A stretch of DNA of 63,982 nucleotides, counting the filler, from Sphacelaria rigidula (lineage: Eukaryota): the NCBI GenBank assembly GCA_964200075.2. It is 9 parts of 9 records of this genome, joined end to end, with 100 filler letters (N's around TTAATTAATTAA, not from the genome) between each part and the next. Parts side by side here need not be neighbours in the genome. Positions count along the whole stretch, not along the records: positions 49,845 to 56,863 come from CAXNAA020016927.1; positions 56,964 to 63,982 come from CAXNAA020016928.1; 7 more parts are not named here. One strand, given 5' to 3'. Below, piece after piece: positions 12,490 through 59,371 of the stretch. The translations under genes were made by a program, and so were the position numbers. A model generated the notes under the pieces. It did not search any database, had not been told where the DNA came from, and saw only the letters and a program-made list of their open reading frames with translations. Within the stretch, counting starts at the first letter, position 1. Every line of letters starts with the position of its first letter.

Positions 12490-12565
12490 GCGGTGCTCCG
12501 CCTCGAAAGGGATGCGTGGTCCATGACCAAACGACTGAGGCAAGCGATAAATGAGTACACACCCG
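12490..12565 (+). mobile_element. Non-LTR retrotransposon 3' fragment, family B
   Basis: cggtgctccgcctcgaaagggatgcgtggtccatgaccaaacgactgaggcaagcgataaatgagtacac matches the 3' end of the long copy at 56255-56720. Confidence 0.8.
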
Positions 12566-13868: not shown

Positions 13869-14101
13869 CGATAGGGGGGGGGGGGTTCGATTCCACGAAA
13901 AAATGGGCTCATAAATGCTTCAGACGACGAACCACACTCGCGGTGTGCTCGTATTTGGGTAAAAGCGGTGTCAAGCAGTGTGAATGAGCGTTATTTATCG
14001 AAAGCAAGCGCGTTTGAAGAACCTTTGTTGCCTTTAACGACGATTTAAAGTGGAATTTCGTGGGGGAAAACGGCCCAAAATACCCCCCCCCCCCCCTATC
14101 G
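13869..14101 (+). mobile_element. ~230-bp element bounded by poly(G) and poly(C) inverted termini
   Basis: cgata(G)12 ... (C)14tatcg. The internal core cactcgcggtgtgctcgtatttgggtaaaagcggtgtcaagcag is shared with copies at 35986-36267 (+) and 39416-39675 (-). Confidence 0.7.
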
Positions 14102-14243
14102 GCGCGCTGGCGTTTTTTCTTTCCCGGTAACCATGGTGGTAGTNNNNNNNNNNNNNNNNNNNNNNNNNNNNNNNNNNNNNNNNNNNNTTAATTAATTAAN
14201 NNNNNNNNNNNNNNNNNNNNNNNNNNNNNNNNNNNNNNNNNNN

Positions 14244-21264: not shown

Positions 21265-21749
21265 NNNNNNNNNNNNNNNNNNNNNNNNNNNNNNNNNNNN
21301 NNNNNNNNTTAATTAATTAANNNNNNNNNNNNNNNNNNNNNNNNNNNNNNNNNNNNNNNNNNNNAAAAAAAAAAAGAAAAAAAAAACGAAAAAAAAAAAA
21401 AAAAAAAAAAAAAAAATGCTACGAGCTGGGCCAGTCTGAGGCGGATTTAAAGTTTGAAGGCCCATGCACCGGCCAATATGTAAAGTTGGAGCATAAAATT
21501 TTGTATGGACACAAAAGCATGGGACATGAAACAAAATGAGGAGTGCGTCAATTTTTTTTTCCCTCTGTTCATGTGTTGAGGGATTTTTGCTGGTACCTGA
21601 CAGCTGAAAACTGATTGTTGACCTTGACTCAGGGAGATTTTTTTTTGGCACGAGCGTGATTTTTTTTTTTGCCCCACGCATCGTCCGAAGCAAATTTACG
21701 CTGCGACTCTAAATATTGGCCGGCGAATTCGCCTTCTTAAAACCGGGTC

Positions 21750-27702: not shown

Positions 27703-28102
27703 AGATTTACTCATGATTCTGCATGTTGTGGTCGGAGACCTTCGACCTCGCATTCCTACAAATCCCGGACGGAGCACGCCGGATTTTCGCCGGACCAGGC
27801 TCGTAGTCATCAGGCGCGAAGCGCCGTGATGTAATGTGCGAGTCGCATGAAGGGGTGAGCTGCATCCTACCAAGATTATTCAGCCCGAAGCGTACTAATT
27901 ATCTTGCACACGGATGGCAGCCTACAATGAGTTGATTGATTTTCTGGTGTCGCGACTTCCAGAGACGGTCATAGGTCACACTGCCTCATGGCTGTCTCAC
28001 ATGTCAACATTTCGTATTATTACGGTTACCCCCTTTGCGCGGAGTCGAGGTTCTCCACCCCGCACGATATGATTTCACTGGACCACCATTATGGTTACCG
28101 CG
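27703..28102 (-). mobile_element. Non-LTR retrotransposon 3' part, family A (~400 bp)
   Basis: Colinear with 31830-32240 (+) and 37208-37605 (-). The 3' end abuts ggggaaggggg, a C-tract on the element strand. Confidence 0.85.
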
Positions 28103-28925
28103 AAAAAAAAGAGCGAGCGACAAAATAAACGGTAGTGGCGTAAGCCAACCGACGCTAATCCTCAGGGGGGAGAGTGTGGCGACGATACGCCGTAGACTGG
28201 AGACCCATGCCCAACGCACGCGAAGCTGACTATAGTTCCGACTTGTATTCTTCGTGCGAGCAAATAACTATACGCAGCCATTTTTGTCGACAGCTGGAAT
28301 ATGACTCACCCACCGGTGCGCGACCTGGATGATCGCACACGTCAATTTCGGCGCATTACGGGAGGCTCATCGAGGATTTCTGCTNNNNNNNNNNNNNNNN
28401 NNNNNNNNNNNNNNNNNNNNNNNNNNNNTTAATTAATTAANNNNNNNNNNNNNNNNNNNNNNNNNNNNNNNNNNNNNNNNNNNNTCTTTCCGATTCATTT
28501 GTACAGTTTGGGGGGGGGGGGAATATTCTCCGGAGAAGAATTGCTACTATGGTATGGCTTTGTGAAAAATGCTCTCCGTGAGAGGAGAGGAACGGCAGTG
28601 GCACTTGATTATTATTTTTCAAAATGAGCTTTTTTGACTGATGAGACGGAAAAAATGCAAAAGTAGCCCGACCCAATTTTGTCATATATCCATAAATGTT
28701 TACATGTATGTGTACGTTTTTCGCATGTATATTTATATAAACACACATATGACAATACCAACCGGTTCCGGTCTGAAGCAACGGAATCAGAAATTACCAG
28801 AAAACCTTCAACTAGCGTCTATCCGGTTTTACTGAGAGGTGGGCTCACCTTGTTCGAGATGATGGTAACGCTCGCTTGCCTTTTCCATGAACACATACGC
28901 ACACACATATATATATATATATATA

Positions 28926-31193: not shown

Positions 31194-31231
31194 GTACGTG
31201 CGTGGTCATGGGTTCCTCTATGCCAACAGCG

Positions 31232-31334
31232 TTCTCATGTGTTGCTTGCCTTAGTCGTCTGACCATTGACCACACATCCCTTTCGAGACGGAGCACCGTT
31301 CCTACTCCTAATAGAGACACCTCCAACATTCTCG
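31232..31334 (-). mobile_element. Family B retrotransposon 3' fragment with 16-bp TSD
   Basis: Flanked by ctctatg(c/g)caacagcg at 31216-31231 and 31335-31350, next to a G-rich tract. Confidence 0.88.
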
Positions 31335-31429
31335 CTCTATGGCAACAGCGGGTGGGGCTCGGTGGGGGGTTTGAAAGAGTGAAGACTGAAAAATACAAGG
31401 AATGCTACTGATGTAGTGCGTACAGTTCA

Positions 31430-31508: not shown

Positions 31509-31829
31509 TTGGGTTCGTGAGGTGTGATGAGTTGCGGTGGGGTGGGGTGCGGGGAAGAGAATCCCAATGAGATGAGTTGATCATTTCGTTTACGAGCGCG
31601 ACCAAAAAACATGAAGATGTGACGTTTTTTCTTCCAAAGCCTAATGTTGTTCGTTGGTGCCATGTCAAACGAAAGACCAAACGTTAATAAGATGCGTCCC
31701 GTTTGAGTCAGGATCTCCCACCTCCCCATGGGGTTGCCGTCGGTTGGCGATGACGCTGTAGAACATGCCACTCACTGCGCAAGCTAGGCAACCAGGTCAC
31801 CGGTTTTTTTTTTACGCTTGCATTTCTAT

Positions 31830-32245
31830 TGTGGTAACCATGGTGGTGGTCGAGCTAGATCATGTTGTGCGGCGTGGAAGAAACTCAACTCCGCACGAAG
31901 GAGATGATCGCACCACGTAGTGTTGCAATCGTGAGACACCCGTGAGGCAGTGTGTAACTTGTAGCTATCTCTGGAAGTGGCTATACCAGAACATAAAGCT
32001 ACTCGATCGAGGCTGTCATCCATATGCAAGATAATCAGTAGGCTTCGGGCCGAGCAATCTTCGTAGGATGCAGCTCGCCCTTCATGCGACTCGCCGAACA
32101 CATCACAGCGCTTCGCGCTTGGTGATTGACTTCGAGCCTGGTCCGGCGAAAGCCCGGCGTGCACCATCCCGGCTTTGCATGGATGCGAGGCCAATGGTCA
32201 TATGACTGCGGCATGCAAGATCATGAATGCACTCCTTCCCCCCCG
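31830..32245 (+). mobile_element. Non-LTR retrotransposon 3' part, family A
   Basis: gtggtaaccatggtggt...ggatgcgaggccaatggtcatatgactgcggcatgcaagatcatgaatgcactccttcccccc. Confidence 0.85.
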
Positions 32246-32979
32246 CGCGCGCGCTCCTCCCCTTCGAGAAGCACAGTCTCTATTTTTCCTCCATGCTTCC
32301 CCCTGTTGAGGTTCATTTCGGGGGCTGACCCGTGCACAGCGGTTACGCTAGGAATGTGCGACAGTCGAAATTCTCGCGCTTGTTTATTTGGTTCCCTTTT
32401 TTCATCTATTTGGGCCTTGCTTCGGTCATTCTCCAGGGATGGAAATGTTTATTTTACTCGCCGCTGAACCGTATAATAACTCTGAGCCTCTCCCAATATT
32501 AGCCTCCTAATGTCTAGGCGGAGTAGCAGGAGAGCTGGCACTGCTTTTGCCGTATTTATTTGGTGCTGTCTCGTCCATGTCTTGGTTTACATTTTCACCG
32601 TCACCTTCACCTTTCCCTCCTCGGGACGAGTCGGCGGTCTCAACGTATCGGTCCATCTCGTCCCACTTGTTCTTATGTCTAACGTAACGGCAGGGCACGG
32701 CTGAGACAAAAAAAAACCCAAAAACGGCTCATTTCCCAACTCCCTCATCTTGTCTCTGAGTGGAATGATCGTGTTGCAATAGAGAGATACAAGTATCATC
32801 TAGGGGTAAAGGGAACAAATTAAGTCTGTCTTTTTGCTGATTTATTCATCTTTTTATTGATTTCATGCATGAATAGCCAGATTATAGAAGAAAGCAAGAC
32901 AAAACGCGTTCATTTTTCCGAGGGAATTGTACATACAACAGAGCTGCCATATGCGCGCCGGCACGGAGACGTAATAAAC

Positions 32980-35504: not shown

Positions 35505-35985
35505 NNNNNNNNNNNNNNNNNNNNNNNNNNNNNNNNNNNNNNNNNNNNTTAATTAATTAANNNNNNNNNNNNNNNNNNNNNNNNNNNNNNNNNNNNNNNN
35601 NNNNTTGGGTGTTTGTGGGTTTGTGTGTTGTTTGGGTTCATAGGGTCCCGGAGTTTTATTTTGGGCACCCCTCCTTTTGACAAATATTATTGGTACCGTG
35701 AAAAATGTCCTCGCCAAATTTTGGCGTAGATCCCCTCAGAGCGGGCGATTCGTTCCATTTTTGTCAGAGCGGGCGTCACCAGGGTTTGCGGCTAGCCGAG
35801 CCGATCGTAATAAATTGTTTTACTTCACCGCCTGTGCACGGCTGACTTTGAGGGATCATGGCCTGGAACGTCGGCACAAGGTTTTCATCGTGTAAATCGC
35901 GGAAAGTGGCCGAACACCCAACGAACGAAATATATCTCCAGCACAGTGCAGCAAAATAAAAAAGAAGTGTTCCTACGAAAGGCGC

Positions 35986-36220
35986 GGGGGGGGGGTTGAT
36001 AACTTGCCAGAAAATCAGGGGCTCGCAGGTAGTTCGTTGTGTCAGAGGACTTGCAACGCTCGCGGTGCGCCTTGTTCGGGTGAACACGGTGTCAAGGAGT
36101 ATGAAAAACTGTGTCTTATTGGTACCAAGCGCTGACGAGCAAAAGTTGCTGCTTTGAACGACGATATTATGGCGTGGCATTTTCGTGCAAAAATAAATAA
36201 ATATCCCGCTCCCTACCCCG

Positions 36221-36267
<47 letters not shown>
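35986..36267 (+). mobile_element. Poly(G)/poly(C)-bounded element, copy 2
   Basis: Core ctcgcggtgcgccttgttcgggtgaacacggtgtcaagg; ends in a long C-run. Confidence 0.65.
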
Positions 36268-36268
<1 letters not shown>

Positions 36269-36345
36269 TCCTCCGTCTCGAAAGGGATGCGTGCGTGGTC
36301 AATGGTCAAACGACTAAGGCAAGCAACAAATGAGTACGCCCCCCT
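36268..36345 (+). mobile_element. Family B retrotransposon 3' fragment inserted after a poly(C) run
   Basis: ctccgtctcgaaagggatgcg...aacgactaaggcaagcaacaaatgagtacgcccccc. Confidence 0.85.
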
Positions 36346-37207: not shown

Positions 37208-37605
37208 TTGCACTCATGACCATGCATGACACATATAGTCATATGACCATTGTCTTCGCAACTGTGCACGCCGGGTTTTCATCGGACCAGGCTCGCAATC
37301 AATCACCAAGTGCGAAGCGCCGTAGCGTGTTCGGCGAGTCGGATGAAGGGGGGGCTGTATCCTGCTAATAATATTGTTCAAGCCGAAGCGTACCGATCAT
37401 CGCGTGCATTTGGATGACAGCCTCCAGTGACTTCCTTCATTTTCTGGTATTATTATTGCCACTTCCAGAGACAGCCACGGGTTCTACACTGCCTCATGGG
37501 TGTCTCACCATTTAAACACTACGTTGTACGATCATCCCCCTTGCGGGGAGTTGGAGTTCTCCTACCCCTCATAATATGATCTAGCTTGGCCATCACGGCT
37601 ACAGC
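37208..37605 (-). mobile_element. Non-LTR retrotransposon 3' part, family A
   Basis: Colinear with the other family A copies; the 3' end abuts a G-run on the plus strand. Confidence 0.8.
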
Positions 37606-39232
37606 AAAAAGACCGCAAGTGCGCAAAAATAAGCGGTAACCTGGTTGCCTAGCTTACGCAGTGAGTGGTGTGTTTTACCGTCATCGCCAACCGACGCCAG
37701 CCCCATCGGGGTTCCCCCCCCACAAAGCCGGGGCGGAGCACGCCGGGTTTTCGTGGGACGAGGCTCAGGCTCGGGGTGTTGGGTCGGGGGGAAGCACTTA
37801 CGTGTACGGGAAATTATTTCTCGTGCACCCTTGTTGTTGTGTCTACAGATATTTCCACGTAAAAAATACGCCGCCCCCAAACTGTCACGAAGAAAATGTT
37901 CATACACAGCGCATGATAATAGTTGATTTCAGACTGACTGAACGAAATGCCTCATCATCTGGGCAACACGGACCAAAATTACCCGAAGGGAGGGTGTTAT
38001 TCTCTTCTGATCGATATGCTCGGCTTTCGTTATTTTGATTTGCATGTAGATTTTACCTACTCAACCAGTTACTATAATAATAGCTGTTTTAGCGGAGGCT
38101 ATCGCGACACGACCGTTTACGGTGTTTTTAACCCTTTGACAACCACCCCCCCGCAGGAAGACTGGATAAGACTATCCACATTTGGGGTTCGGAATCATTC
38201 CTTTGTCACAACACAAAACGCCTACTCGACAGACCGAAGGATGCAGGGGTGCATATGAGGCACATGGTTGTGATGGTCATAACACAGGCGCCTGCGCACA
38301 GTGCATTAGTAGTGTGGAATCTGAAGTTACGAGCAGACCTGCACCGAGTATATCTTGCAACGCCTCTGAGCTTCATCACAATGCCATGATAATGACTGGG
38401 GATGAGTATGTTACCAATCCCCACACGCGCCTTCAGCCGTCACCCAAGCATATCTCCAATCTGGACCACCACACGAGATGCCTTCTGCCCGAAATTGTCT
38501 GAGTGAAGGATCACCGGAGAGCTCCTGGCGTCTCCGTGAAATGCTGGGAACTTCGGTACGATTAACGACTGTAGTGTTTGGCATCAAACGATTATATATA
38601 TATATATATATAAAGATCCCGACCTCTGCAGTTCATTGTACATTTCGGGGGGATACTGATGATTTGGGGCGTAGCCGTATAGCTGCAGGCTCACAGCGCT
38701 GTTCTGGTTGTATGAAATCTTCTGCTAGCCTGCCCTTGTGCCCCATACCCCGATGCTGACTGATGACAGTACACAGAGGCCTCTAGTGTATGATGCAAAG
38801 AGAGAAACGGCCCCCGTCTCTCTCTCTTGGTTTGGCACCGCCGCTAATGCCGATCGCCGTTGGAACAAAATCATCTCTCCCTCTTCTGTTCGCAAGCTTT
38901 CAATAAAAAAATGACATAGATCTTCAACCAAAATTTGGATCGACCCAGAGCTACCTGCCTGAAATTTATCAACGGCCATACGCCCCAAATCAACTTCAAA
39001 CCCTTTCCTAAAACGACCATTTGTTCCGTATCTAAAGAAGTTGCGTATTGCTATTGCAACATACGCCGTCCATTGCCCAGGGTGTGCAAAACGCTGGCCT
39101 CGGCTCGGCTATCCGTTCTTCAACGGTTGTTTCCGTCTCCTACAGTCGTTTTTATTCTAGTCAGGGCAACAAATCGAATTACTTGCGCGGCTACGGGCGA
39201 TTTGATTAGTCATCTTACGATTGGGTGGGTGG

Positions 39233-39266
39233 AGGTGTACTCATGATCATGCATGCCATAGTCATA
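39233..39266 (-). mobile_element. 34-bp family A 3' fragment with 14-bp TSD
   Basis: gattgggtgggtgg at 39219-39232 and 39267-39280 flanks aggtgtactcatgatcatgcatgccatagtcata. Confidence 0.85.
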
Positions 39267-39415
39267 GATTGGGTGGGTGGTGGAGGGGGGGGGGGGGGGG
39301 GATTTTTGGCCCCCTCTTTTACGACGATGCCCCTTGGAATTTTTTTTGGAGGCGGCAACCGCTGTTTGACCGCACTTTNNNNNNNNNNGGAGTTTGGGGG
39401 GGATAGGGTGGGTGT

Positions 39416-39451
<36 letters not shown>

Positions 39452-39675
39452 CGGCGTGTTATTTTTGGCCACCTCTTATACGACGATGCCACTTCGAATT
39501 GTCTTTGCAGGCAGCAACCGCTGTTTGAACGCACTTACTTGCCGCCAATACGACACACTCGTATATACTGCTTGACACGGTCCTCGCCCGAATACAAGCG
39601 CACCGCGAGTGTGTTGGGTCGTTCGACATATCCGTAACAATACTATTTCTCGTGCAATCACCCCCCCCCCTCCCC
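39416..39675 (-). mobile_element. Poly(G)/poly(C)-bounded element, copy 3
   Basis: Reverse-complement core gcttgacacggtcctcgcccgaatacaagcgcaccgcgagtg. A partial duplicate lies at ~39285-39377. Confidence 0.65.
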
Positions 39676-40987: not shown

Positions 40988-41021
<34 letters not shown>

Positions 41022-41319
41022 CCACCCCCCCCCCCCCCCCCCCCCCATTCTTCCGATCGATGTCTCCCCCCCGCTTCTAGGCCACGGGGAAGGAGTGCTG
41101 CATTCATCATCATATGTTTCTCATAGTGGGGAGGTTTGCAGCAAGGGGGCTGATCTTGATCCTGGTCCGTCACCCTCCTCCAAAAACATTCGTCATCTCG
41201 TGCTCGTCTCTGCCGTACAGACAGCACCTGTGTCGGACAAAATGTTTTTTGGAGGCTCAACGCCTCACACATCGTGTAGACCCGAGGGGGGTGGGCAGTG
41301 GGGCAACAGAAAGGAAAAG

Positions 41320-42260: not shown

Positions 42261-42945
42261 CCAGTCAAATCAAGACGCGGTGCCCCGCTTTTCTCACACG
42301 TATAAAAACGGCAGACGATCTTCTATTCACCAATCGAGTCAAACAAACGCGCAAATTAAGTCCGCACTCATTGAGACAGAAACATTCGTCAAACATCAAC
42401 ACTGAGTTTCGGTCTCCATATAACAAATATGGTCTTGGCATCGTCCAGAGATGTCCAACATCTCGGTCGACCTGGGCATCAACCTTTGCTTGGGTACATG
42501 AATCGTTATCTGCATGATGGCCAAAAACACTAAAAAGATAGAACATCAAAGCACAAGAAATTGTGCGAATTGAGGTTTAACTCCGAGATGAGGTTCAAGC
42601 CTAAAACAGTGCTTTCCCCACGCTNNNNNNNNNNNNNNNNNNNNNNNNNNNNNNNNNNNNNNNNNNNNTTAATTAATTAANNNNNNNNNNNNNNNNNNNN
42701 NNNNNNNNNNNNNNNNNNNNNNNNCATACAGCGCCTGATGTTCGGGTTCAGGCTGCATGAAGCGCCTCATATTTGCGACATTGGCTGGAACGGACCCCAG
42801 CGCTGAAATTTCCAGCTTCTCGTTTTACTCGGCTTTTCCCCTTTCGATTCACGTGAAGATTTTGCCTCCCAAAACTATGCACTTTTGGGGGGGGGGCTAT
42901 CGTAGAAAGTGTTGATATAATAATCGCAAGCAGCGGGTGCTATTG

Positions 42946-46047: not shown

Positions 46048-46409
46048 CTGGTACGAGCACGAAGTCGCCATGAATATGATTTAACCATTGGGGGCGGGAG
46101 AACACGCAGCTGACGCAAGAACATATGACGGGGAACACAACACTGCCTGCTTCTACAACAGTGAGGTCGCTCGAAAGCAACCACAGGCCACACTCGGAAC
46201 AAACTGGACACTAGGTTATGCGCCCACTCTCTAACCACCACGCGTGAATACCAGCTTACTGTCTGGCAGTATCCTTCAAATACACGTAATATCTACAGAA
46301 CCTTACTTTGGCACAATACGTTCCATCGGGAATGACAAGAAGACACTATCTGCCTGACGCGAATCGAGATACCCCCAAACGCGGAATTCTCACGTCTCGG
46401 TATACCTAC

Positions 46410-47529
46410 CTTTCTCCGTAGGAGATGGTGTGGGCACGGGTGTAGGTGATGGTGATTCCGTGGAAGGAGCAGGCGTGGTTGGTGTGGGCGTTGTGGGCGT
46501 CACGGTGGTGGGTGCGACAGTGGTGGGCGATGGTGTGGTTGGCGTGGCCGTGGTCGGCGTAGGGGTGGCGGGCGCAGGCGTGGTGGGCGCCGGCGTGGTG
46601 GGCGCCGGCGTGGTGGGCGCCGGCGTGGTGGGCGTTGACGTGGTGGGCGTTGACGTGGTAGGCACGGCCGTGGTCGGCGATGGTGTGGTAGGCGACGGTG
46701 TGACGGGCACAGCAGTGGTGGGGGACGGCGTAGTGGGCGACGGTGTGACGGGCCCGACAGTGGTGGGCAAAGACGTAGTTGGCGTGGCCGTGGTCGGCGT
46801 AGGGGTGGTGGGTGCAGGCGAAGTGGGCGCCGGCGTGGTGGGCGTTGACGTGGTGGGCGCGGTCGTGGTCGGCGACGACGTGGTGGGCACCGGTGTGACG
46901 GGTAAAGCAGTGGTGGGGGGCGGCGTAGTGGGCGAGGATGTGATGGGCGTGATGGTGGTGGGCCTAGACGTAGTTGGCGTGGTCGTGGTCGGCGTAGGAG
47001 TGGCGGGCGCCGGCGTAGTGGGCGCCGGCGAAGTGGGCGACGGCGTGGTGGGCGTTGACGTGGTGGGCGTGATGGTGGTGGGCACGGCTGTGGTCGGCGA
47101 TGGCGTAGTGGGCGACGGTGTGACGGGCACAGCAGTGGTGGGAGAGGACCTAGTAGGCGACGGCGTGGTAGGCGTTGATGTGGTTGACGTGATGGTGGTC
47201 GGCGATGGCGTGGTTGGCGCGGCCGTGCTTGGCGACCCTGTGGTGGGTGACGGTGTGACGGGGACATCGGTGGTGCGGGGCGGCGTGGTTGGCGAGGGCG
47301 TTTCGGGCGCGACTGTTGTAGGTGCAGGCGTGGTTGGCGTGTGCGTGGAAGGCGTCGGAGTTGTGGACATTGGCGGAGTGGGCGACAGCGTGGTAGGCAG
47401 CATGACGGATCGCACCGTTGTGGGTGTAGTGGGAGAAGTTGCCTTGAGTGGCGGGGTGATGGGTGTAGGCGTGGGCACCGTGACTCCGAGTACAGGGGTG
47501 GCGATCGAGAGAGTGATAGCAAAGAACAA
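46410..47529 (-). CDS. Mucin-like Thr/Pro/Ser-rich exon with signal-peptide-like N-terminus (start codon unresolved)
   Basis: LFFAITLSIATPVLG, then ~350 aa of 5-residue TTPSP/TTAVP/VTPSP repeats (15-bp units); donor G|gtaggt in phase 1. Confidence 0.85.
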
Positions 47530-48400
47530 CCCCCGGGAGTGCCAGCATCACAACCCGGTGATAACTTCAGAATGGGACACTTGGTAAATATCCAACCTTT
47601 TATTTTGGCAATAGTGAAAATGAAGACACGTTTTTGCCGGTATGGCTTTTCATCAAACACCCGACGGCAAGGACGAACGTCGGTGGTGAAAAGCGATTCT
47701 CGCTCGCCCCTTCAGAGCTCCTCACAGTCATGGAGCTTCTCCTATTGCGGGGGATTGCACAAAATCAGTATGAAGAGCGATTAACTTCACCAAAACGTCC
47801 GGGTGCCCAACCGCTCGACTTGCAGCACCGAGACCAAGCGACGACGGTACTGGAGGGAATGCTCACATATCAAACGAGAACAATACTTCCTACTTGTGTA
47901 CAATCCAGCACACAAAGGATAGTCACAAGTGTGTGGGATATTGAGCCCTAGGCATCCTGACTGCACTTCCTTAGTATGTGTACTTTGGTGTGGATACGAA
48001 TATTTTTATTCTCCGGGTTTCTTGTCCCCAATACAAGATCCATCCCCAATTCGTAAGATCCCATGTCTTAAGCCCCATCATGAAGCAGCTTAGCCGTCTT
48101 CGTGAGATAAATGCTTTCATACTTTGCAAGTGATGGAAGATCGCAGACACTGCTTCTGCTTCGGGATGTTCAAACGACATACATCCTCTCTTCCTTTGCT
48201 TTCGTTGATTTGGAACATTCGGGACAATACTGGCACACCTCGTGCATGTTTTCTTTATGTTAAACGCATATCATATTGTTTCAAGTAAACTTGTTTTTAC
48301 GATCTATACTCTGGCTGTAACGTAATCCAAACTTTATTCATCTGTTGCTAAATACCACGACACAAACCACTCAGGGTGCCATCTTTATCTAATGCGCAGA

Positions 48401-48930
48401 GTATTCTACACACGACTCCCAGCTCAACCTTGTCGTTCACAATAATACCACAGCGTGCAGCTCTAGTGACATAATGAGGAGCTACGCCGAGGGCGAATAT
48501 TTCCGACGGAATACCGTCCATCTCCTGTTTGTGTATTCTACACACTACTCCCAGCTCAACCTAGTCTTCTACAATAATACCACAGCGTGCAGCTCTAGTG
48601 ACATAATGAGGAGCTACGCCGAGGGCGAATACTTCCGACAGAATACCGTCCATCTCCTGTTTGTGTATTCTACACACTACTCCCAGCTCAACCTAGTCTT
48701 CCACAATAATACCACAGCGGGCAGCTCTAGTGACATAATGAGGAGCTACGCCGAGGGCGAACACTTCCGACAGAATACCGTCCATCTCCTGTTTGTGTAT
48801 TCTACACACTACTTCCAGCTCAACCTAGTCTTCTACAATAATACCACAGCGTGCAGCTCTAGTGGCATCATGAGGAGCTACGCCGAGGGCGAACACTTCC
48901 GATAGAATACCGTTCATCTCATATTTGTTT
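48401..48930. repeat. 132-bp tandem repeat, ~4 copies
   Basis: Units start at 48401, 48533, 48665 and 48797 and are highly similar. Confidence 0.95.
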
Positions 48931-49146
48931 ATGCTCCTTATGGTCAACTCTGGCGGTACCCAAATGGTCAAATACGGCTAGGACGCGAAGAAAATGTTAT
49001 TGAGTGTTCTGTTGGGGAACGTAAGAACCAAGGGGACCAATCACGAGATCAGATATACTCGCTCCCCATTTTTTAACTTGGTTCCTGTAATGTGTGGGAG
49101 GACCGCGTGCTTGTTAGACCGCATCGGCGTTCAAATACTTCCTATG

Positions 49147-49184: not shown

Positions 49185-49868
49185 TCGCGGCGCGATCCCT
49201 GCAGGTATAGGCCCGAGCGGACTTGAAGAACATCGATCCTCCGGTGTTCCAACTTCGATGCGGGTCAAAATTCACGCGGCCCTCCCACGCATTACATTCC
49301 GAGTAGGAAGGTTTCTCCTGAAATGTCAAACACGCGTGGTCGACTTCGTAGGCATTTCGGTTGTTCTTGGGATATTTTAGACACCTTGCGCCCCTCACAA
49401 ACCGCACCCCCACCAACTGGAAGCCCCTTGATGCCCCTGGACTGTCGCCCTGCTAAACGTATCCGAGGCGAGGCACACAATCTAAGGGTCAATGCGCATA
49501 GTTTACTCATCTGGTCTCCGGTATTCATTCATGTACTGCTTAGCTTGTGAGATCGGCTCTTACATGGAGTGAAGAAAAGCTGGACCACGATAACGCACAC
49601 CCGACGGGCGGAACACCTCACAAAGATGGCGAATGGCGGGGACCATAACGGGGTTGAAGTTGCAGGCGCGGTCGGAGTGTTACCAGCGAAGATAGCGTTG
49701 ACAAACACGCCAATCCAGTAGTACCCGAACCGGTTGAACCCCACNNNNNNNNNNNNNNNNNNNNNNNNNNNNNNNNNNNNNNNNNNNNTTAATTAATTAA
49801 NNNNNNNNNNNNNNNNNNNNNNNNNNNNNNNNNNNNNNNNNNNNATCGGAACGGCTTTTAATGTGAAG

Positions 49869-49912
<44 letters not shown>

Positions 49913-51304
49913 TTATATGGGCGAAAAACGGATCTATTTTGAATAGGTTCTCCTGCTGTTCGAAATATATCCTTTTTTTGGCCCAAATAAATTGGGCCAA
50001 AAATGGATCTGTTTTGAGTAGCTTCTCCTGCTGTCCGAAATAAGGTAGTTTTTGCCTGATTGAAATCGGGCAAAAATCGGGCAAAAAGGAATTATCTCGC
50101 TCAGCAAGAGAAGCTATTCCTAAAAAATAATTTTACAGATTTTGTGCCAAAATAATTTGGAATTTTCGAAACTGGGAAGGCCTCTCCACAGGGTTGCTTG
50201 CAGGGTTTCGACAAAAACGCTATGCAAAATGCTACACAGGGGTTTTCACAAAGACTGTGGAGAACCGTGTGCAGCTCGTCTCACAGGGTGCTATTTGTCC
50301 ACGTGTGGAGCCTAGCCCACTTTTCAGATCAGCTTGGCTCCAAGGTTTCGAGAGCGGCCGCTGAACAAAAACCGTGTGCAACAAAATCTACGGCGATCTC
50401 CACAGATTATCGAGCAAACTGGCGGGGGTCGGCAAGCATAGATTTTTGCGCACGAATTTTTTTCAGCGGCCGGCTCGAAACCTCGGAGCCAAGTGAATCT
50501 AAAAAGCAGACTAGGCTCCTCTTTGTGGGGTGATGCAAAGTGTCCAAGAAGACGTGTGTTGGCGATTCTCCCTGTTTGGGGTTCAAAAGGGGGGTCAAAC
50601 GTCCCAACAGTGAACAACCCGTGGGCCAAAAATCTGTGTGCCATAATGTCCGGCCTAAACCATCGAAATATTTCGAAAAATAGCAAGTGGGCTCTCCGGC
50701 CGTGATGTACGGCGTCGCTCATCTCAAAAATATCAATCAATCCGTGATTCGTTAAATCTCTTGTCATGTAGTATGTGGAGATGAGGAAAAAACTGGGCTG
50801 AGAATTCGTATTTTTCTTGTCAGAGAAAATTAAGGTCGTTGATCGGTCGAGGTAACTCTCCGCCCTCAGCACCACCCTCATAGCCTTGAACATAAACCCG
50901 ATTAAGTCACCCTCTTCCGTTGTCCATGGCGGTCAGTATCATACCATGTATGCAACTAGTGGGTAAATATTGCCGAAGGCAATTGCTGAGACCCACGTTT
51001 GGGTGAGAGTCGTGAACCATCTAGTAAGTCGGGCTGAAGCTAGCGGCACGTGTTGAATGCGATCGAAGCTCATGCTCTAATACTCCACCTCCACGAATTT
51101 GATTGCTTGCGCTGGGCGCTGCTTATGTGGGGAACGTGCAGAACACAACCCGGTTATCTGCGTATTATGTCGTGGGGCGAGGGAGGCAGCTGCGGCACCC
51201 GCAGCGTTGACTTCGAGTCTGAATATCTGTATATTTGGCGAAAATTCTGTCTTGTAAAGAAACGGCGTGCCTAAGGGTTACGTCGTTCACGTTTCATAGC
51301 ACCC

Positions 51305-51680
51305 ATGAGACCGAGAGCAATACTGACGGGTCTACTGGCCTGCAGCCTCTTCAGGGATAACAACAATAGCAACGCTAGCGCTTTTGTGTACACATCCACA
51401 TCTTCATGTCTCCACAGTTTCTACAGCAATACCTGCAAAAGGCAGCAATGCGTGGGCAGTTGTCCCACGTCACCATCCCAATTTGAAGATCATGTCACCA
51501 CTGCAACATGCCGTGCTGCCGCTAGGTCGCACACACGGCGGCGGCGACCACGTTCCACTGCCCTTTCTTCTACCGCAGGCTCCGCAGGAGAATCTATTAG
51601 AGAGGGTGGGGATGATGGGGAAGATGCAACGAGTGCTGCATCAACGCCGAATATGTCGTCTGGAAGCGGTGGATCAGCAG
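51305..51680 (+). CDS. DUF179/UPF0301 (AlgH-like) protein, exon 1: bipartite plastid-targeting presequence
   Basis: MRPRAILTGLLACSLF...NASAFV (heterokont ASAF cleavage motif), then an S/T/R-rich transit peptide; donor G|gtgaag in phase 1. Confidence 0.75.
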
Positions 51681-51699
51681 GTGAAGTAGGATAGGTGAC

Positions 51700-53450
51700 G
51701 GAGGATAACACCCCTAGTGACGAATTTTCAAACTTGAATTTCTTTAGGTCTGTGTATGCTATGCGGCCGAACGTTGTCGCATTTGAAATATCATGTCTGA
51801 AGTTCTTGTGCGAGGTGTTCTTCGGGAGTCTAGGGTGTGGGGCCTCGATAATGTCGCGGTGTATAATCGATCCGCGGACTGTGTTACGCTGACACCAAAG
51901 CTCTGGACACCTTAGTAAGGCATGTCGAGGGCTGAATCCTACCCCGACCACGGTTGCGGTTTTTCCATGGAAGGGTCGCAGTAGGAGTCAGTGCCAACTG
52001 ATTCCCTGTTGTCGCAGGATAGCTATCATGCTTTTATCACGATGTGCGCGGACGGGGCTCTTCAAGCTTTCCGTGCATGCTGCCACATGTTGATCAATTT
52101 CGTCAAACACACATCACTTATTGTGTTGAGGTCTTCATTCACAGCGCAAAAGTTATACCGCAAGCCTCATCCAAAACGCGGATGAGGTTCACCCTTAGCC
52201 GGCGAGAGTAGGTCCTCTGTGGAATCGGCATCAATTTCACTTGAAAAAATATTTTTGATCCAGATGGACTACCCTCGTGGTCCAAAGATCAACACTTTAA
52301 TGCATTTTGGGTACGTGGGTGCCAATGCGAACTTTGCATCTTGATTCATTAAATACGAATACGGGTACAGTATTCAGGAGGAAGATCCTAGAGCTTCGCA
52401 ATCGACTGCGAGCCTCTTCTCAGAACAGTATTTTCCACGACAACCCGGCGGGTGAGCCGAGCAAGGGTGTACTTTTTCGGGGAAGGGAGGGAGGCCGTCT
52501 TCGAGAACTCGTGGAGCATCTAAAGCACGATTGGAGCAATCGCAGACCTATGAAATGCATTATCATCACCGTGCTGTACCAGTTGGCACACGCGGCCTCT
52601 GCCGTAGCTTTTGGGAAAAGTTCTTGAAAATATTTACGACGCGAGACACACGCACTCGTAAGAAGCATGTCTTGGCTCGAGGAGTGGTCCTCAAGCAGTG
52701 ACAGGGTTTCGCGGTGCCCTGACTTTTCTACGCACGTCCCAATACCCTTGTGTCGGTGCAACCAGGCGTTTTGTGTCCGATCAATTGTGGACTAGAAAGT
52801 CGATATCCATTGCTGTCGATATAAGCCTCCACCCTCCCTGCGAGATGGTATTGAAACGCTGGTTGAAGTTCACTTGGAACTTGGGTAATGTCGATAATGT
52901 TCATCACAGAGTTCGGAATAGCTTACCTGACCCGCAGTTCAGTGTTTGAAATACCGATACGCCCGATGACGAGCGAATACAGCCGATATCATTGTTTTTT
53001 CTGAATCTGATTCGCCCGTAAATTATTATCGTATGCACCGCGCCCCGCTTGTTTAATCGTACAGTTGGTACCATTAGGGCGGAAAAGAACGCCGATTTGA
53101 TTCCATGCTGATGCATTTGGAATTTTTCTTTGAAGTGTCTAATTTCTGTCGTTGAAAGCGTGAAGACGTGAGGAGCAACAAGGTTATGTTTTACTGACTT
53201 CGTCCAAGGAGACTCGATGCGGTGAAGGAGTGTTAGTCAGTATTCAGTCCCCGAGCCAACAGGGAAGGCGTACACCGGAGGAGAAATGAGTTCGTCTCTT
53301 GTGACCGCAAACTCCTCCGGAGGGAGAGGGGGGAAGATGAAAGGGCGATGAATCAATATGTACAAAGCGTCCATGCCCGATAAAGATGAATTTACGATAT
53401 TGATGCCTTGGAGGCGCTTATTGGAATATGGATGTGTCCATGTTTTCTTG
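51700..53450 (-). mobile_element. Possible highly decayed LINE reverse transcriptase in the intron
   Basis: Only remnants: QHGIKS near 53100 and HGDDNA near 52570, in the expected RT order; many stops. Confidence 0.3.
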
Positions 53451-55218
53451 TCGGGGTGTTTGCTCAGTTCGCTCGCTCGCTTCTAGCCCCCCACCCCCCT
53501 TTCTCTCACACGTTTCTCTTCTGCACTTTTGGACAAATACGGTGAAAAGGTAAGGATGGTAATCATAGAGAGAAAGGTTAACGTAGGCTTCCCAGCTTGC
53601 TTCTTCGATTTTCCGTGATCACATTTTCATCTAGTATAGTGGAAAGTGTCCTCAACTCAACGCCGAGGTGTTTTTTTGCGCCATTGCTCCAGTATCTAAA
53701 CACTGAGCACTGCCCGAAAGCAACCCAAAGGCGAACTATTCGCTATGGCAGAGCCAAAGCAGTAGCCATTCATGACTGTCGCGGTTGTGGGGTGTGTGGT
53801 GGTATGTATGACAGAACCGTTCTGTTCCCCGTCGGAAGGTCACAAGTTTGAACCTCGGCCCCAGCAGAAAAAAAACGGTTCCTCAGAGACACGGAGACGG
53901 ACTCTGTTCTCTCCTTCGAAGGTGTCACTAACTTTTTTTTTCTTACCCCGTAACCACGGGTGTGGGTAGTTCTCGACGTCAAGGGTACATTTCCTTCTAA
54001 GGAAGCGCACCAGCTGCATTCGTGGACAACACTTTTTTTCTGTGCACCCTCACCATTTGTGAACCCCCGTTCCGTGGTTCTTGTTTCTCACCTTACCCGT
54101 TCTCCTCTCACCTTACCCGTGCTCCACGAGGTTCATGATTCACGTCGATTTTGAACCTAACGCCACGGGGTACACAGTGCAGCAACCCATCCGACAGCGA
54201 GTACCCGATGCGGTGGACCGCCCCGAAGAGGATTCCACACAAAAGCCGTAGAGCTGGAATTTTTTGCATCATTCTATTTCGTCACTCTAAGAAATCCGTC
54301 GTCACAATTTTCGTTCCAGTTGCCACGGCACACGTCAGCTTGGTTAAATCTTTAGGTCCATGACATTTCCGTGTCACGCACAGCGTTTACGGTTCTCACG
54401 TTGTTCGGCCGTTCACCGTTGCTGTTTCTTTCTAGGCTGCTAGCTTTTCCTTTTATTGTTCGGTGGTTTGTTATCTTGTCACCCATGATGACCTGTATTT
54501 TTGTAGTGAACCTGCTTGTTTCTCATTTTGTTTTTGCGGTAAAACCAACCTCTACTTTTTACCCGGATGTGTTTTACACTGACAGTGGTCTCGGCGCTAC
54601 AGTATAGGGCGTGCTAAATACGTGTCTGCACAAGCGTCTTCGTCCAGCACAGCATTCTTGAGTTGGTACCTTTCGGCAAAACTCGATCCCCGAAGTTTGG
54701 AGAGGGTGCTGTGTAAATCGCCCCGGTGATATCTACGCATGTAGACACAGGAGGACGTTTTTGTTTCGGTGGCAGGACTGACTGTACGTCGCCTGCGTCC
54801 CTTGGCAATGACTATGGGTATTCGGGATAGATTGACCTTGATGTTGCTCCCGGAAGCCTCGTGGTGTGCTCGCCACTGATGCTCTTCGGAACGCAACGAG
54901 TCGAGATGCCGAGGAATGCCACCGCATCCAGACTGTGCATAAATCGTACGGTAATATCCTTTGAGCTATAGAGTGGTTCCGGTCGCACAACCGCATATTT
55001 TGGGTCCAAGCTGCTGTGTCGCCTGTGACACATGGAACACATGCACGTGAGTAGAAATGCTGAAACGTACAGCTGCAGTAGCCCGGTGCAGCTGCTTATT
55101 CCGAGGTTTTGCGGACATATTCAATACCACGGTTCCTCCCCATCGCTTCCTCTTGTCACACACACACACACACACACAAGTAAACCCATTTTGCCCAGAA
55201 TGCTCCTGTACATTACAG

Positions 55219-55547
55219 GTGGCGAAGTACCCATCGGTGAAAATAAAAATGACGAGCAGGAGAAAAAAGATGCGACAAATGACGAGAGTGCTGACGAAGG
55301 TGAAGACGGAGAGGATGCGGAACAACTCTTTGTCCCCGCCGGGGACATAAGCGACCGGCGCCTGTACCGAGCCAAACTGCTTGCCGGTTCTGACAAGAAA
55401 TGGAGAGAGCAACTGAAGAGGAACATCAACACTGGGCAGTTGGGTGGGCAGGATGCGTGGGCGCATGAGCTGAGCTCCCCGGAGCAAGGGTGCTTGATCG
55501 TGGCCAAGTCTCGCGAGTTCAGCCTGTCGCAGCACTACTTCAATGAG
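55219..55547 (+). CDS. DUF179/UPF0301 (AlgH-like) protein, exon 2
   Basis: cag|GT GGC... (phase 1). SDRRLYRAKLL...WAHELSSPEQGCLIVAK...QHYFNE|gttagt matches the plant/algal DUF179 pattern DWRxFRAxL...WAHxIxxPExGCxLxA. Confidence 0.82.
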
Positions 55548-56254
55548 GTTAGTGAGGCTCTCTTGCATCCTAAAATTATTCAAATGATCGAGGGACTGGA
55601 AAAGGTGACGCAGTTGCGGTGTCTGAACACTTTCAGATACATTGTGGCCAAATTCTAGTTGGAAAGCGCAGTTTAGATCTTGGCATGAAGTCCAACGCCG
55701 TGCGTGTGTCTCAGCAGTACTGTGGAGATTGGCAGCATTGAGGTTCCGACGTGAGACGGTCTCATTTGTTGTCTCATATTTCTGCAACTCATTTGCTATA
55801 CTCCAGCTGACATGACAATGCGGGAGGCACCAAGGGTGTATGCGTGGAAACGCTCGCGAAAGTAGATGGAAAATATTGAAGTGCGTGAACGCAACCGTGC
55901 AGTTCGCGTCGTTCTCCACCAGCATCCCAAGCAACATCCGCAAAAACATTTTTGGTGGTCATTCAAACGCATTGTGTATTGAAAACTTCGCTGACTAGGT
56001 GCAGGGCTTGGCGGTCGAACCCACAGGGTAACGGCCGACCGGGCGTTTTGACTGCTACCTGTAGCCGCTACGTGTCATTCTATGTCACTCGCTTGTGCCT
56101 GGCGCATGTCTAACAAAAAGACAAGTATGAGAAATGTATCGCAAACCAACGAGGTTTAGAACGCTGTCCCCACGAGCTTCCCCCCCCCCTCCCTGCGATG
56201 GTCAAATGACTAAGGCAAGCAACAAATGAGTACGTCCCCCCCTCCTCCCTGCGA

Positions 56255-56720
56255 AAAATATGAAACTGCGATTTCGGGTGGGGGACCTGTACCTGCCAGA
56301 AAGAAGAAAGATATATACCGGTAGCCGAGAGGAGGAGGAAGTAGATGCACAGAACTGCCTCTGTGGCGAAGGAATAAAGAGCAGAAGTCATATAGTGGCA
56401 GAATGCGAACTATACAAGGAGGAACGGGATGTGCTAGCGGAGGAAATGCGGGACGTGAACGAAGGTGGCATGAAGTCATTTGATCCATCAGACAGTAGGG
56501 AGAAAACGATGGCTATTCTAGGCGATAGATGGTGGCCACAGACGGCGAAACAAGACACGGGGATAAGATATGTAAAATGTGTTTGTGTTATGTGTGAGAG
56601 AAACGTAGTGAGCGCCGGAATGTTGGAGGTGTCTCTATTAGGAGTAGGAACGGTGCTCGGTCTCGAAAGGGACACGTGGTCAATGGTCGAACGACTAAGG
56701 CAAGCTACAAATGAGTACGC
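56255..56720 (+). mobile_element. Family B LINE 3' region encoding the C-terminal CCHC zinc knuckle
   Basis: KLRFRVGDL...NCLCGEGIKSRSHIVAECELYKEER (CxC..H...C motif of non-LTR ORF2), ending ...aaatgagtacgccccc. Stacked with short family B copies at 56199-56236 and 56740-56802 and a family A copy at 56817-56863. Confidence 0.85.
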
Positions 56721-56966
56721 CCCCGCCCCCCCCCCTCAGCTCCGTCTCAAAAGGGATGCGTGGTCAATGGTCACACGACTAAGGCACGCAACAAATGAGT
56801 ACCCCCCCCCCCCTCAAGAGCCTGGTCCGGCAAAAACCCGGCGTGCTCCCTTCCGGCATTGTANNNNNNNNNNNNNNNNNNNNNNNNNNNNNNNNNNNNN
56901 NNNNNNNTTAATTAATTAANNNNNNNNNNNNNNNNNNNNNNNNNNNNNNNNNNNNNNNNNNNNTTT

Positions 56967-57022
56967 TGTGGTCAACGGTCAAACGACTAAGGCAAGCAAC
57001 GAATGAGAACCCCCCCCCCCCC
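56967..57022 (+). mobile_element. Family B 3' end followed by a C-run
   Basis: gtggtcaacggtcaaacgactaaggcaagcaacgaatgagaa followed by poly(C). Confidence 0.8.
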
Positions 57023-59371
57023 CTCCTCCCCTCTCTCACACACACACACAATATTTCGTTTGCAACGACCACTAGTGAGCGAACACTGTCGGACCCTTAT
57101 GTCCTGACAACATCTGACACGTCCGCATCAAAAGTTCGATTCAAGAACAAAAACATACCTGAAACAAAAAAATGACGAGACAAATTTTATTTACGTTCGC
57201 GTGAAATAGCCCATCCATCCATCTTTCTTTTTTTCAAGGATATCGTGGTTGATTGTCTTCGAGAGAGAGGGAGAGAGACAGGAGTCAATTCTTCGGGAAC
57301 CAGACAGCTACAACAGAAAGCTGGTGGACATGGTAAGAAATGATTATCGCGGGTGTTGTCTAGGGGACGAAAATTACGAAACACCATGGACGGTGAAGAA
57401 CGTGCTCTTCGCATTTGCAGCGTGAAAAAACAACAAACCCACCAGACGTAGAACTGTGTCATGAACGTATGATTCCAGATAAGTACCAGTGCTTCCCGCG
57501 CCCCGGTCTTCGCCGCCGATGCTATGGAAAATGACACCAAAAGCGCCAGCACCGTGGTCGTCACGGGATGCTCCATCGGCCGTAACGTCTGACCGAAGCA
57601 CGAACCGAAAGTCATTGTGCCGCACACACCCGCGCGGGCTCACTTTCGTCCCTCCTCTTCCTGGCCTCTTTTCTCCGCTTGCTTGCCTCGCCAGGTGTTA
57701 CGGCAGAGGTGGTGCGCCTTCTGAGGCAGCAGCTAGGAAGCACCCAGCGTATGTGTGCTATGTACAGATCAGATCTTCCGTCGCGCTCAGTGGAAGTTGA
57801 GATTTGAAGAAAAAATACGTTATTTCGGCTTCTCCGCTCCCTGCGTTCTGTCTCGAGCGCAAGCCGTCCTGCAACAACCTGCCGTTGGAGTATGACTTGG
57901 GCGTTACTTTTTTTTCCTTGTGTCGAAAGTCAAATCGGTGGAATGCGAGTGGAGGCATTTGTCGTGCGCGCACCCGAGGAAGTTATATGCACCATGACCT
58001 ACTGCATTTTTTACCTAATAGGGGAAGGATAGAAAGTTGCGTAGGACCGATTATTCGTGGGTCTGTATTGTGGGGAGTCAGCGCGGCAGCAAGAAAAACG
58101 AAAACCGGTGTGTCGGGTGCATCAGCCACGCGTAACAACAACTGATATTTGGGATAGCAGGTAGACAACTCAATGCCGGTCCCACCTACTCGATGCTCTC
58201 TCTCTCGATCAAGGAACAAGGAACACCCAGCATTTGATCATTTGGAAAGAGTATTGGACGAACACTACAAAGTATATCAGCCATGACTGTAAATATGTCT
58301 GCTGCAGTCTGCACCGAACGATTGTCGGCAAAACAACGACGACAACGAAATCTGAGGGATGGGAATTGACGGGACCCACATGTCCCAAAGATATCTCAGG
58401 TCCGCGCTACAATGCACTTCCCTGCCCCGAACCCTGCCCCCCAACGCGGTGCTGCCACTTTGGAACAAACCGAAAGGTGCAGCTGCCCGCGTACAGCAGA
58501 ACAGTACAACATACGGTACACTCAAAGCTGTGAGATTTCAGGGATACGGCACAATAATGTCTCTGCAGCAGCTTTGATACTTAAGTGCACATCGGCACAC
58601 ATAAAGTTGCCGCGGAGATCGAGACAGATCATGGATATACACCACAGCTCACCTCTTCAACCTGTCGCTACGCCGCGCTGCCGTTGCGTGTTGCCCCGCA
58701 TCGGTATGGGGGTATTGGATAATGACCATCAATCTAATAGTATAAATAGCGGCGTGTTCTGGCGGGTTACTCTGACAACACAAGATACTTGATACTGTGC
58801 TGAGGGCAAACAACAATGTTTAGAGCTGGTAAACGCATCGCCGTGGTGGCCTCTCCCATAATCGGCCTCGGAGCATGGTCTGCATTCGTTTTTCAGGAGA
58901 GGAGCAGGGAGCCGAGAGATATTCGGTTTGAAATTGGATCCCCAGGTGCAGTTTGGTTTGACATATGATCATTCGTTGCACAAGGCGACGCGGTATAACA
59001 CCCCCCGTTGCTGCAAGCTGCTACCACCTCTCATCTCGTGTAGAGGGACAACTGGATATTGTCAAGATGACATGTGCCATGGAATATCTCGAAAAAATGG
59101 TTTTAATGACAACTCGAATGTCACTGTGACCGGCACATAGTCTTTGAGAGAGTCGAGAGACTGAATAATTGATATCGGGGGTGCTACAGCGAGACCCTGC
59201 CCGACTACCGTAGATGATGGTATACAACACCCCCTATGACAACGTTTTCGGCTCCGCCCCCATGGGGTAACTTTTGTATCCTAAGTGCATAGCCCGATCA
59301 AAGTATAGGACTCTGCTTTTTTTCTGTGCTATGACATGTATTCAGACGTGTCTTATCGAGCTGAAAAATAG

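Follow-up and report, generated by a model that had tools for sequence, protein, structure and literature searches.

Several described retrotransposon systems come close to the arrangement reported here. In L1 and Alu, a poly(A) tail anneals to a T-rich primer at TTTT/AA nicks. Stringent pairs of long and short interspersed nuclear elements (LINEs and SINEs), such as eel UnaL2/UnaSINE1, have a common 3' tail, and in R2, which uses a restriction-like endonuclease at a single rDNA site, the exact tail-less 3' junction is set by downstream target sequence in the co-transcript. Zepp of Chlorella and GilM/GilT of Giardia form arrays at chromosome ends, where the target is poly(A) or the element itself. 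Among LINEs with an apurinic/apyrimidinic endonuclease (APE), a microsatellite-specific group comprises Waldo (ACAY)n, Mino (AC)n, Kibi (TC)n, Koshi (TTC)n and Dong (TAA)n, and no homopolymer is named among the targets in the review that lists them (PMC3812793). We describe a stack of retrotransposon ends, separated by runs of C, at 56180-56863 in a 63,982-base stretch of Sphacelaria rigidula DNA (the window). The stack is best explained as truncated copies of a brown-alga-type APE LINE and its short non-autonomous partner, built by successive events of target-primed reverse transcription (TPRT). The window, with a G+C content of ~50% across its whole length, consists of nine pieces of ~7,020 nt each, joined at regular steps by N44-TTAATTAATTAA-N44 linkers; piece 8 is 49845-56863, piece 9 begins at 56964, and adjoining pieces may be non-adjacent in the genome. 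As the joins are artificial, features touching 56863 or 56964 are cut artificially, and the copy at 56967 in piece 9 does not belong to the stack in piece 8.

Read from left to right (56170-56863), the locus consists of unique DNA, C10, TCCCTGCGA, B1, T C7 TCC TCC, B2, CCCCC G C10 TCA, B3, C11 TCAA and A, in which B1, B2 and B3 are 5'-truncated copies of a LINE 3' end (family B) and A is a fragment of the short partner (family A). Four insertions lying head to tail, each set apart by a C-run, had been proposed in an initial annotation of this DNA; the elements and their stacking were confirmed, with the bounds revised to 56198-56234 for B1 (from 56199-56236) and to 56249-56719 for B2 (from 56255-56720). 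The runs are C10 before B1, C7 between B1 and B2 (56236-56242), C5-G-C10 between B2 and B3 (56720-56735) and C12 between B3 and A (56802-56813). The direct repeat reported around the shortest copy, B1, was found again as TCCCTGCGA, exact on both sides and with a C-run before each copy. All B copies finish ...ATGAGTAC(G), that is ...AAATGAGTAC(G); in B2 the stop codon TGA lies at 56712-56714 and is followed by GTACG. None ends in poly(A), and A's past the 3' end, as expected of a poly(A)-dependent L1-like element, were seen in 0 of 13 copies in the window and 0 of 3 copies outside it. The annotation was therefore right about poly(A); its wider statement that there is no simple-repeat tail is less secure, as the C-run may itself be a tail, given GTACG followed by C8-C13 in all three outside copies and the CCCCCG behind B2.

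Logan contigs from four of 11 listed runs, which stem from three studies (X1, X3 and X4, DNA; X5, presumed to be RNA), were matched to piece 8 at 85% likeness. In X1, X3 and X4 the flank up to 56177-56225 is at single-copy depth. Since the C10 at 56180 is attached to this single-copy DNA, it does not represent the tail of some other family A or B copy. At the other end of the stack, loose contig ends before 56818 and behind 56857 yield family A sequence on both sides.

Translation of B2 gives the C-terminal region of a LINE with a C-x-C-x8-H-x4-C finger, and the translated stretch 56257-56718 is 68-76% identical to the C-termini of six proteins, one of them from Sphacelaria rigidula. These relatives combine a reverse transcriptase (RT) with an APE endonuclease and a CCHC finger, which bears out the initial assignment to retrotransposons that lack long terminal repeats (non-LTR). 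In the 1,360-aa relative among the six (P0006), APE lies at residues 170-414 and RVT_1 at 740-989. The endonuclease, which the annotation had left between the two known types, is APE and not restriction-like in this relative (PF03372, E 3.4e-12; PF14529, E 3.3e-07), the domain being found there and not in the window copy itself. No RT or APE was detected in the window among the 40 of 43 open reading frames (ORFs) of at least 150 aa that were scanned, and a 42-nt fragment at 7123-7164 is its sole LINE match besides the 3' ends. A second protein search returned 161 relatives at E <= 1e-20, with Ectocarpus sp. CCAP 1310/34 as the only named organism. The closest solved RT structures are human L1 ORF2p (6.6e-21) and R2 (8.8e-20), with scores too similar to place the element in a named RT clade. 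A protein-pattern scan of metagenome contigs for relatives gave 593 pattern matches, none confirmed, and a DNA-pattern scan gave one locus in genome_contigs, four in metagenome_contigs and 0 in viral_contigs. Two of the metagenome loci (L003 and L005) were set aside as chance matches; the true LINE ends outside the window, from public contigs, are L001, L002 and L004.

The relatives end ...NGQMTKASNK, corresponding to ...AAT GGT CAA ATG ACT AAG GCA AGC AAC AAA, then the stop TGA, and the element ends 4-5 nt past this stop (AAA TGA GTAC(G)), in L001, L002 and L004 as well as in the window copies. This leaves the LINE with hardly any 3' untranslated region (UTR) and places the conserved 3' module within the coding sequence. 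Even subfamilies with just 26-42% RT identity (relatives P0008-P0060) keep a C-terminal '(C)VVNG' and ~7 further residues after a highly variable stretch. This peptide corresponds to the nucleotide core GTGGTCAATGG, which is retained in family A too, and its conservation probably reflects an RNA signal rather than protein function. The 3' module may be the recognition site of the RT; RNAalifold, run on 9 of 16 module copies, predicts a closing stem between GUGCUC at the module start and GAGUAC at the very end.

Family A is non-coding, with full-length-like copies of ~460-500 nt and shorter truncated ones, and resembles family B along its final ~75 nt, with 81.7% identity across 60 nt, including the core GGTCAATGGTC and the end ATGAGTAC. 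Short, non-coding and with a 3' part in common with B, it has the make-up of a partner of the LINE. It shows no head of tRNA, 5S, 7SL or snRNA type with an internal RNA polymerase III (pol III) promoter: no tRNA genes were found in the window, Rfam gave no match at gathering threshold across the window or at E <= 1 on the A copy at 31650-32300, and an internal T10 run would halt pol III. Because a recognisable pol III head is absent, we regard family A as SINE-like and not as a SINE. The lone Rfam row, a Streptomyces small RNA (E = 0.29), was dismissed, and a hammerhead-like CTGATGA...GAAA in one A copy was rejected as the other copies do not keep the motif.

Both families recur through the window (Table 1). 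The terminal 26-mer has seven matches at up to three mismatches against 0 expected (100 shuffles), and a 3'-module profile built from 12 sequences (five B, four A, three outside records) identified 13 copies, namely seven of B, five of A and one diverged LINE end (6954-7018, minus strand). All but one of the 13 score at E <= 1e-5, the exception being at E = 0.06, and another eight profile rows (E > 1) were discarded as noise. The B copies range from 37 to 471 nt and have a single common 3' end, so that a constant 3' end is combined with variable 5' truncation, and three A copies begin at GAGCCTGG.

The flanks of these copies are strongly enriched in C. A comparison with background, as proposed in the initial annotation, was made within the window over 125,952 positions, scoring a C-run of at least 5 within 20 nt. 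Such a run follows the 3' end in 10/13 copies (8/11 with the stack counted once) and precedes the 5' end in 8/13 (5/10 with the stack counted once), against a background of 2.2%; at least eight C in the nearest 15 nt were found in 11/13 3' flanks and 10/13 5' flanks, against 3.6%. The C's are always on the sense strand, and nowhere does a G-run take their place except for the G8 before one A copy. A single repeat in a single orientation is found alike in the window flanks, in the three outside records and at loose contig ends. The 3' side exceptions are 12491-12558, 31231-31337 and 39236-39266, the last of which is C-rich without a run. The earlier claim that most other copies adjoin C-tracts on the element strand holds for both flanks, but not for two B copies that it did not list, 12491-12558 (plus) and 31231-31337 (minus), which have no 3' C-run.

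The same picture is seen at the scale of the genome. In the three outside LINE ends, all with intact reading frames, GTACG is followed by C13, C8 or C10 and then by unrelated DNA. Behind 56242 and 56735, each DNA run has 179-293 contigs with the best supported loose ends, and X5 has 20, confined to 56242; these ends open with 12-21 further C's in the DNA runs (eight in X5), after which the consensus is lost. Before 56739 the loose ends read (C)n and then GGAACGGT, GAACGGT or AACGGT, in 252-260 contigs in X1 and X4 and in 40 in X5, with no row for X3; many genomic copies are therefore 3' modules of ~70-78 nt with C-runs on both sides. Summed depth, which is not a copy number, amounts in the three DNA runs to 0.7-5.7 million over the elements, compared with 12-83 for the single-copy flank, and shows that family B is very abundant in this genome. 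We also note that in L001 the C13 behind the LINE end (95-107) meets G-rich DNA (GTTGGGGGTGGGGTGGCGGGG) at once, within ~25 nt downstream (lower L001 coordinates).

Clear target-site duplications (TSDs) of 15-19 nt were found for three copies, and the TSDs contain or adjoin a C-run. For 31231-31337 the repeat is GCTGTTG[C/G]CATAGAG (14/15 matching), with no C's between element and TSD and with CCCCCCACCGAGCCCCACCC directly upstream of the left copy; for 39236-39266 it is CCTCCACC[AC]CCACCCAATC (17-19 nt), right behind a C17/C36 run; and for B1 it is C7-10 TCC CTGCGA, in which the nine non-homopolymer letters are exact. Weaker, low-complexity repeats are C10-12 TCA either side of B3 and C10 TC around B2. 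The B1 repeat also dates the insertions. Loose contig ends upstream of 56249/56251 read ...CATGGCCCAATGGACG, and as this sequence stands upstream in other copies, B2 starts at 56249 and CTGCGA is its first six nt. The TSD of B1 contains these six nt, so B1 was inserted later than B2, at the 5' junction tract of the latter. Identity to the intact-frame outside copy L001 (B1 36/36, B3 60/64, B2 58/64, or 390/474 overall) fits the insertion order. B2 and B3 share one of nine differing positions, and this is a subfamily variant present in other copies. Since successive TSDs copy the tract, all four C-runs of the stack can descend from one run.

Table 1. Positions of the stack, of further copies of families A and B and of associated features in the window
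Feature	Position	Strand	Remarks
C10 run	56180-56189	+	single-copy DNA directly left; presumed ancestral target tract, left TSD copy of B1 and B2
B1	56198-56234	+	last 37 nt of LINE; youngest copy
B1 right TSD copy, C7 TCC TCC CTGCGA	56236-56254	+	final 6 nt are the initial 6 nt of B2
B2	56249-56719	+	471-nt LINE 3' part; C-terminal region with CCHC finger, frameshifted
CCCCCG (possible short tail) and C10 TCA	56720-56738	+	C10 TCA is the putative right TSD of B2 and left TSD of B3, from the repeated C10-12 TCA
B3	56739-56802	+	last 64 nt of LINE, the 3' module alone
C11 TCA(A), right TSD copy of B3	56803-56816	+	low-complexity match
Family A fragment	56817-56863	+	5'-truncated at GAGCCTGG; cut by end of piece 8
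B copy	56967-57023	+	start of piece 9, 5' side cut by piece end; C13 behind
C46 run, B copy (36268-36338), C6	36222-36344	+
B copy	31231-31337	-	clear TSD; no C's past 3' end; CCCCCCACCGAGCCCCACCC upstream of left TSD copy
B copy, 3' module only	12491-12558	+	C-rich flanks absent; older, 56/64 identical to L001
B', diverged LINE 3' end ...AAATGGGTAG	6931-7018	-	C22 behind on own strand; 5' side cut by piece end
A copy	6691-6793	+	5'-truncated at GCCTGG; C-rich DNA before, C7 after
A copy, full-length-like	27707-28164	-	TCTCCCCC on both sides
A copy, full-length-like	31728-32231	+	both flanks C-rich
A copy, full-length-like	37209-37707	-	own strand: G8 and AACCCC before, AA and C8 after
A 3' end, 31 nt	39236-39266	-	TSD CCTCCACC[AC]CCACCCAATC, directly behind C17/C36 run
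~200-nt repeat	13874-14096; 35986-36267; 39416-39670	+; +; -	G10-12 at one end, C14-46 at the other
Linkers	7023-7122, 14144-14243, 21265-21364, 28385-28484, 35505-35604, 42625-42724, 49745-49844, 56864-56963		artificial, non-genomic

We propose, as a probable though by no means secure explanation, that these elements insert in one orientation by TPRT at C/G homopolymer tracts, and that the tract is copied in the TSD, which restores the target. In both elements the terminal nucleotide is constant (...ATGAGTAC, then G in B and A in family A) and poly(A) is lacking. The endonuclease would nick the G-strand of such a tract, and the elements would hence always be oriented with the C's on the sense strand; a TSD of 12-19 nt would usually take in the C-run, and each insertion would leave a C-run on either side, a fresh target for the next. 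TPRT as known from L1 and R2 has a geometry in which the first nick, made on the strand opposite to the element, is marked by the left edge of the TSD. For each of the three clear TSDs this edge is located within a C-run or at its 3' border, so that the nick would fall in or beside the G-run; such a nick would fix the orientation, and a nick inside the run would leave the new copy flanked by C-runs on both sides. Template RNA that reads through into the C's behind its source copy may anneal to the G-rich primer and thereby fix the exact junction. For the stack, the order would be that the A copy sat behind a C10-TCA tract, that B2 entered this tract, that B3 then entered its right-hand copy and B1 finally its left-hand copy. 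Support for pre-existing tracts as targets comes from an unrelated ~200-nt repeat, as each of the three long C-runs that end its copies has an A or B insertion just behind it.

Several findings weigh against this explanation. No empty site was found, the pre-insertion state being read from TSDs alone, which are mostly of low complexity: the contig joints at piece 8 include no empty alleles, all candidate joints having sides below 31 nt at paralogous ends. Joints across B1-B2-B3 (e.g. 56232 to 56729; sides 23-30 nt) were rejected as empty alleles and taken as other copies. Two of the 13 copies have no C-run past the 3' end, and around the copy at 12491 C-rich DNA is absent from both flanks. In B2 the letters CCCCCG separate the final base from the presumed TSD, and the runs behind many genomic copies look longer than a TSD of 12-19 nt, which suggests that C's were brought by the element or that the run expanded later. 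Of 24 distinct C/G runs of at least 9 in the window, 16 have no adjoining A or B copy; these tracts must therefore have another origin or be the tails of unrecognised families. Finally, the closing stem of the 3' module shows compensatory changes in 0 of 19 pairs, which leaves this structure unproven.

The initial annotation held that the C-tract is used as target or primer. The TSDs contain or adjoin the run, as use as a target predicts, and this part stands, although the element may also bring a (C)n tail of its own. One alternative is thus that the C-run is an element-borne 3' tail, the homopolymer counterpart of poly(A) and microsatellite tails, carried on or added to the template and delivered to targets without a C-tract of their own, in which case stacks would arise as new copies prime on the tails of old ones. 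The C8-C13 behind GTACG in all three intact-frame outside copies, the long C-runs behind 3' ends in hundreds of contigs and the extra CCCCCG of B2 ahead of its TSD would all fit a tail. So would the ~200-nt repeat, which ends in C14, C46 and C36 in its three copies without the LINE 3' module, and free poly(C) tracts, which could be tail-only insertions; one such tract lies at 40988-41046 (C31 T C4 A C22), with no recognised element either side. A tail would not, however, account for the enrichment of the 5' flanks as well, nor for the C10 at 56180, which follows single-copy DNA and is partly inside the TSD of B1. Moreover, 31231-31337 and 39236-39266 have clear TSDs and no tail, yet have a C-rich block directly upstream of the TSD. 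We consider this alternative unlikely.

Another possibility, which seems to us quite improbable, is that the RT jumped between template ends during a single insertion and left tandem 3' modules with untemplated C's between them. It could explain why three of the seven B copies in the window have starts that differ by no more than 5 nt, at 64-68 nt from the element end, and why contigs elsewhere pass from a C-run into a new 3' module ('goes back 66/75' joints, at most seven contigs in X1; (C)n and GGAACGGT). The six nt of B2 inside the TSD of B1 show that B1 came later, though, and the unequal distances of the copies from the intact-frame outside copy, together with the subfamily variant shared by B2 and B3, also argue against one step. 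That variant bears equally on the proposal that B3 is a local duplicate of the end of B2, formed by slippage or by unequal exchange between C-runs, as B2 and B3 have no common private mutation. Tandem Repeats Finder does recognise an 84-nt unit in 1.9 copies (87% matches) at 56655-56813, but the C10-12 TCA on either side of B3 fits a TSD, and local duplication, which we hold to be improbable, would leave B1, the A copy and the genome-wide pattern unexplained. An origin of the C-runs in sequencing or assembly can be practically discounted. Homopolymer lengths are unreliable in any assembly, and a low-quality stretch in the window (39271-39536) holds one locus twice, at 84% identity, around an N10 gap (39379-39388) beside a poly(C) tract, a duplication that is probably an assembly artefact of poor reads through the homopolymer. 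The same junctions nevertheless occur in contigs of the four runs and in three unrelated public assemblies, and the C-runs are internal with unique DNA on either side.

A broader reading that includes the ~200-nt repeat can also be considered, although we regard it as doubtful. In these algae, the machinery of retrotransposition may use poly(C)/poly(G) as L1 uses poly(A)/poly(T), with templates chosen and primed via a 3' C-run. Its basis is the inverted pair of homopolymers (G...C) around the repeat, which would fit full-length retrocopies with untemplated 5' G's; one full-length-like A copy (37209-37707) has a like layout, with G8 before and C8 after. Runs of at least 10 in the window number 24 for C/G against six for A/T. 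If the broader reading were true, unrelated RNAs would be retroposed too, the ~200-nt repeat being a full-length retrocopy with untemplated 5' G's, and the genome's numerous long poly(C) tracts would be a product of this same machinery. Rfam gave no match for the ~200-nt repeat. In its first copy the outer flanks pair as well (CGATA...TATCG), and the C-run/G-run pair of L001 is in the opposite order to that of the repeat. Next to the A copy mentioned above, at 37722-37772 (minus strand), a ~50-nt segment from the interior of family A (GAGCCTG...GGCTTTGT) comes after C-rich DNA and ahead of G8 and then the full-length-like copy; this junction is not accounted for by a simple insertion.

Other features of the window were noted in passing. 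One X5 contig, at a high depth of 348, connects 51677 with 55216 and leaves out 3,538 nt bounded by GT..AG; it is likely to represent a spliced plus-strand transcript just upstream of the stack. Also in piece 8, 50079-51014 and 52185-52418 are other very high-copy repeats, with no C-run at their edges and with summed X1 depths of up to 382,000 and 243,000 respectively, against ~70 on the flank. A 333-aa open frame with ankyrin repeats (Ank_2, E 3.6e-56) at 26161-27162 (minus strand) holds the only clear cellular domain among the long ORFs scanned. Tandem repeats are represented by a G+C-rich (60%) 15-nt/195-nt array at 46358-47587, which is open in several frames on both strands, and by four copies of a 132-nt unit at 48401-48932 (95% identity).

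If insertion at C/G tracts is correct, the C/G homopolymer joins the short list of simple repeats sought by LINEs, in brown algae, a lineage whose mobile elements have hardly been described. Restoration of the target by the TSD would explain the origin of head-to-tail stacks and of numerous C-runs, with consequences for the structure of these algal genomes and for breaks in their assemblies. A fixed 3' end 4 nt past the stop, a coding 3' module and the retained '(C)VVNG' would also make a compact system for the question of how a LINE RT finds its template and primer. Literature searches, which did not extend to Repbase or Dfam, found no report of a poly(C)-linked LINE, and a term search for LINE families gave nothing in the main text of three papers on brown-alga genomes (a genomics preprint, one on sex chromosomes and that on the Saccharina genome). 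The habit seems to be undescribed, though it is a variation on known target-specific LINEs.

The microsatellite-specific LINEs are similar in being of APE type, in lying in one orientation in the simple repeat behind the 3' end, and in that tail and target are indistinguishable by eye. The present elements differ from them in the C/G homopolymer, in a genome of brown-alga type rather than an animal one and in their very high copy number. With L1 and Alu they have in common that the homopolymer behind the element is partly target, the TSD starting with it, that landing in old tails is possible and that a short partner is mobilised; here, however, the base is C and not A, the 3' end is at a fixed nucleotide with a conserved 3' module, and we know of no route by which an RNA would be given a poly(C) tail. 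As in UnaL2/UnaSINE1, LINE and partner share their 3' part, whereas the module lies inside the LINE coding region, the 3' UTR is 4-5 nt and family A has no recognisable pol III head. R2 likewise has an exact 3' end without poly(A), and we propose the same role for read-through C's as its downstream target sequence plays, but R2 has a restriction-like endonuclease and a single rDNA site, in contrast to the APE in relatives of the present element. Lastly, Zepp and GilM/GilT pile up head to tail in the same way, each copy being the target for the next, whereas the loci in Sphacelaria rigidula are interstitial and would share as their target a C-run that the TSD duplicates.

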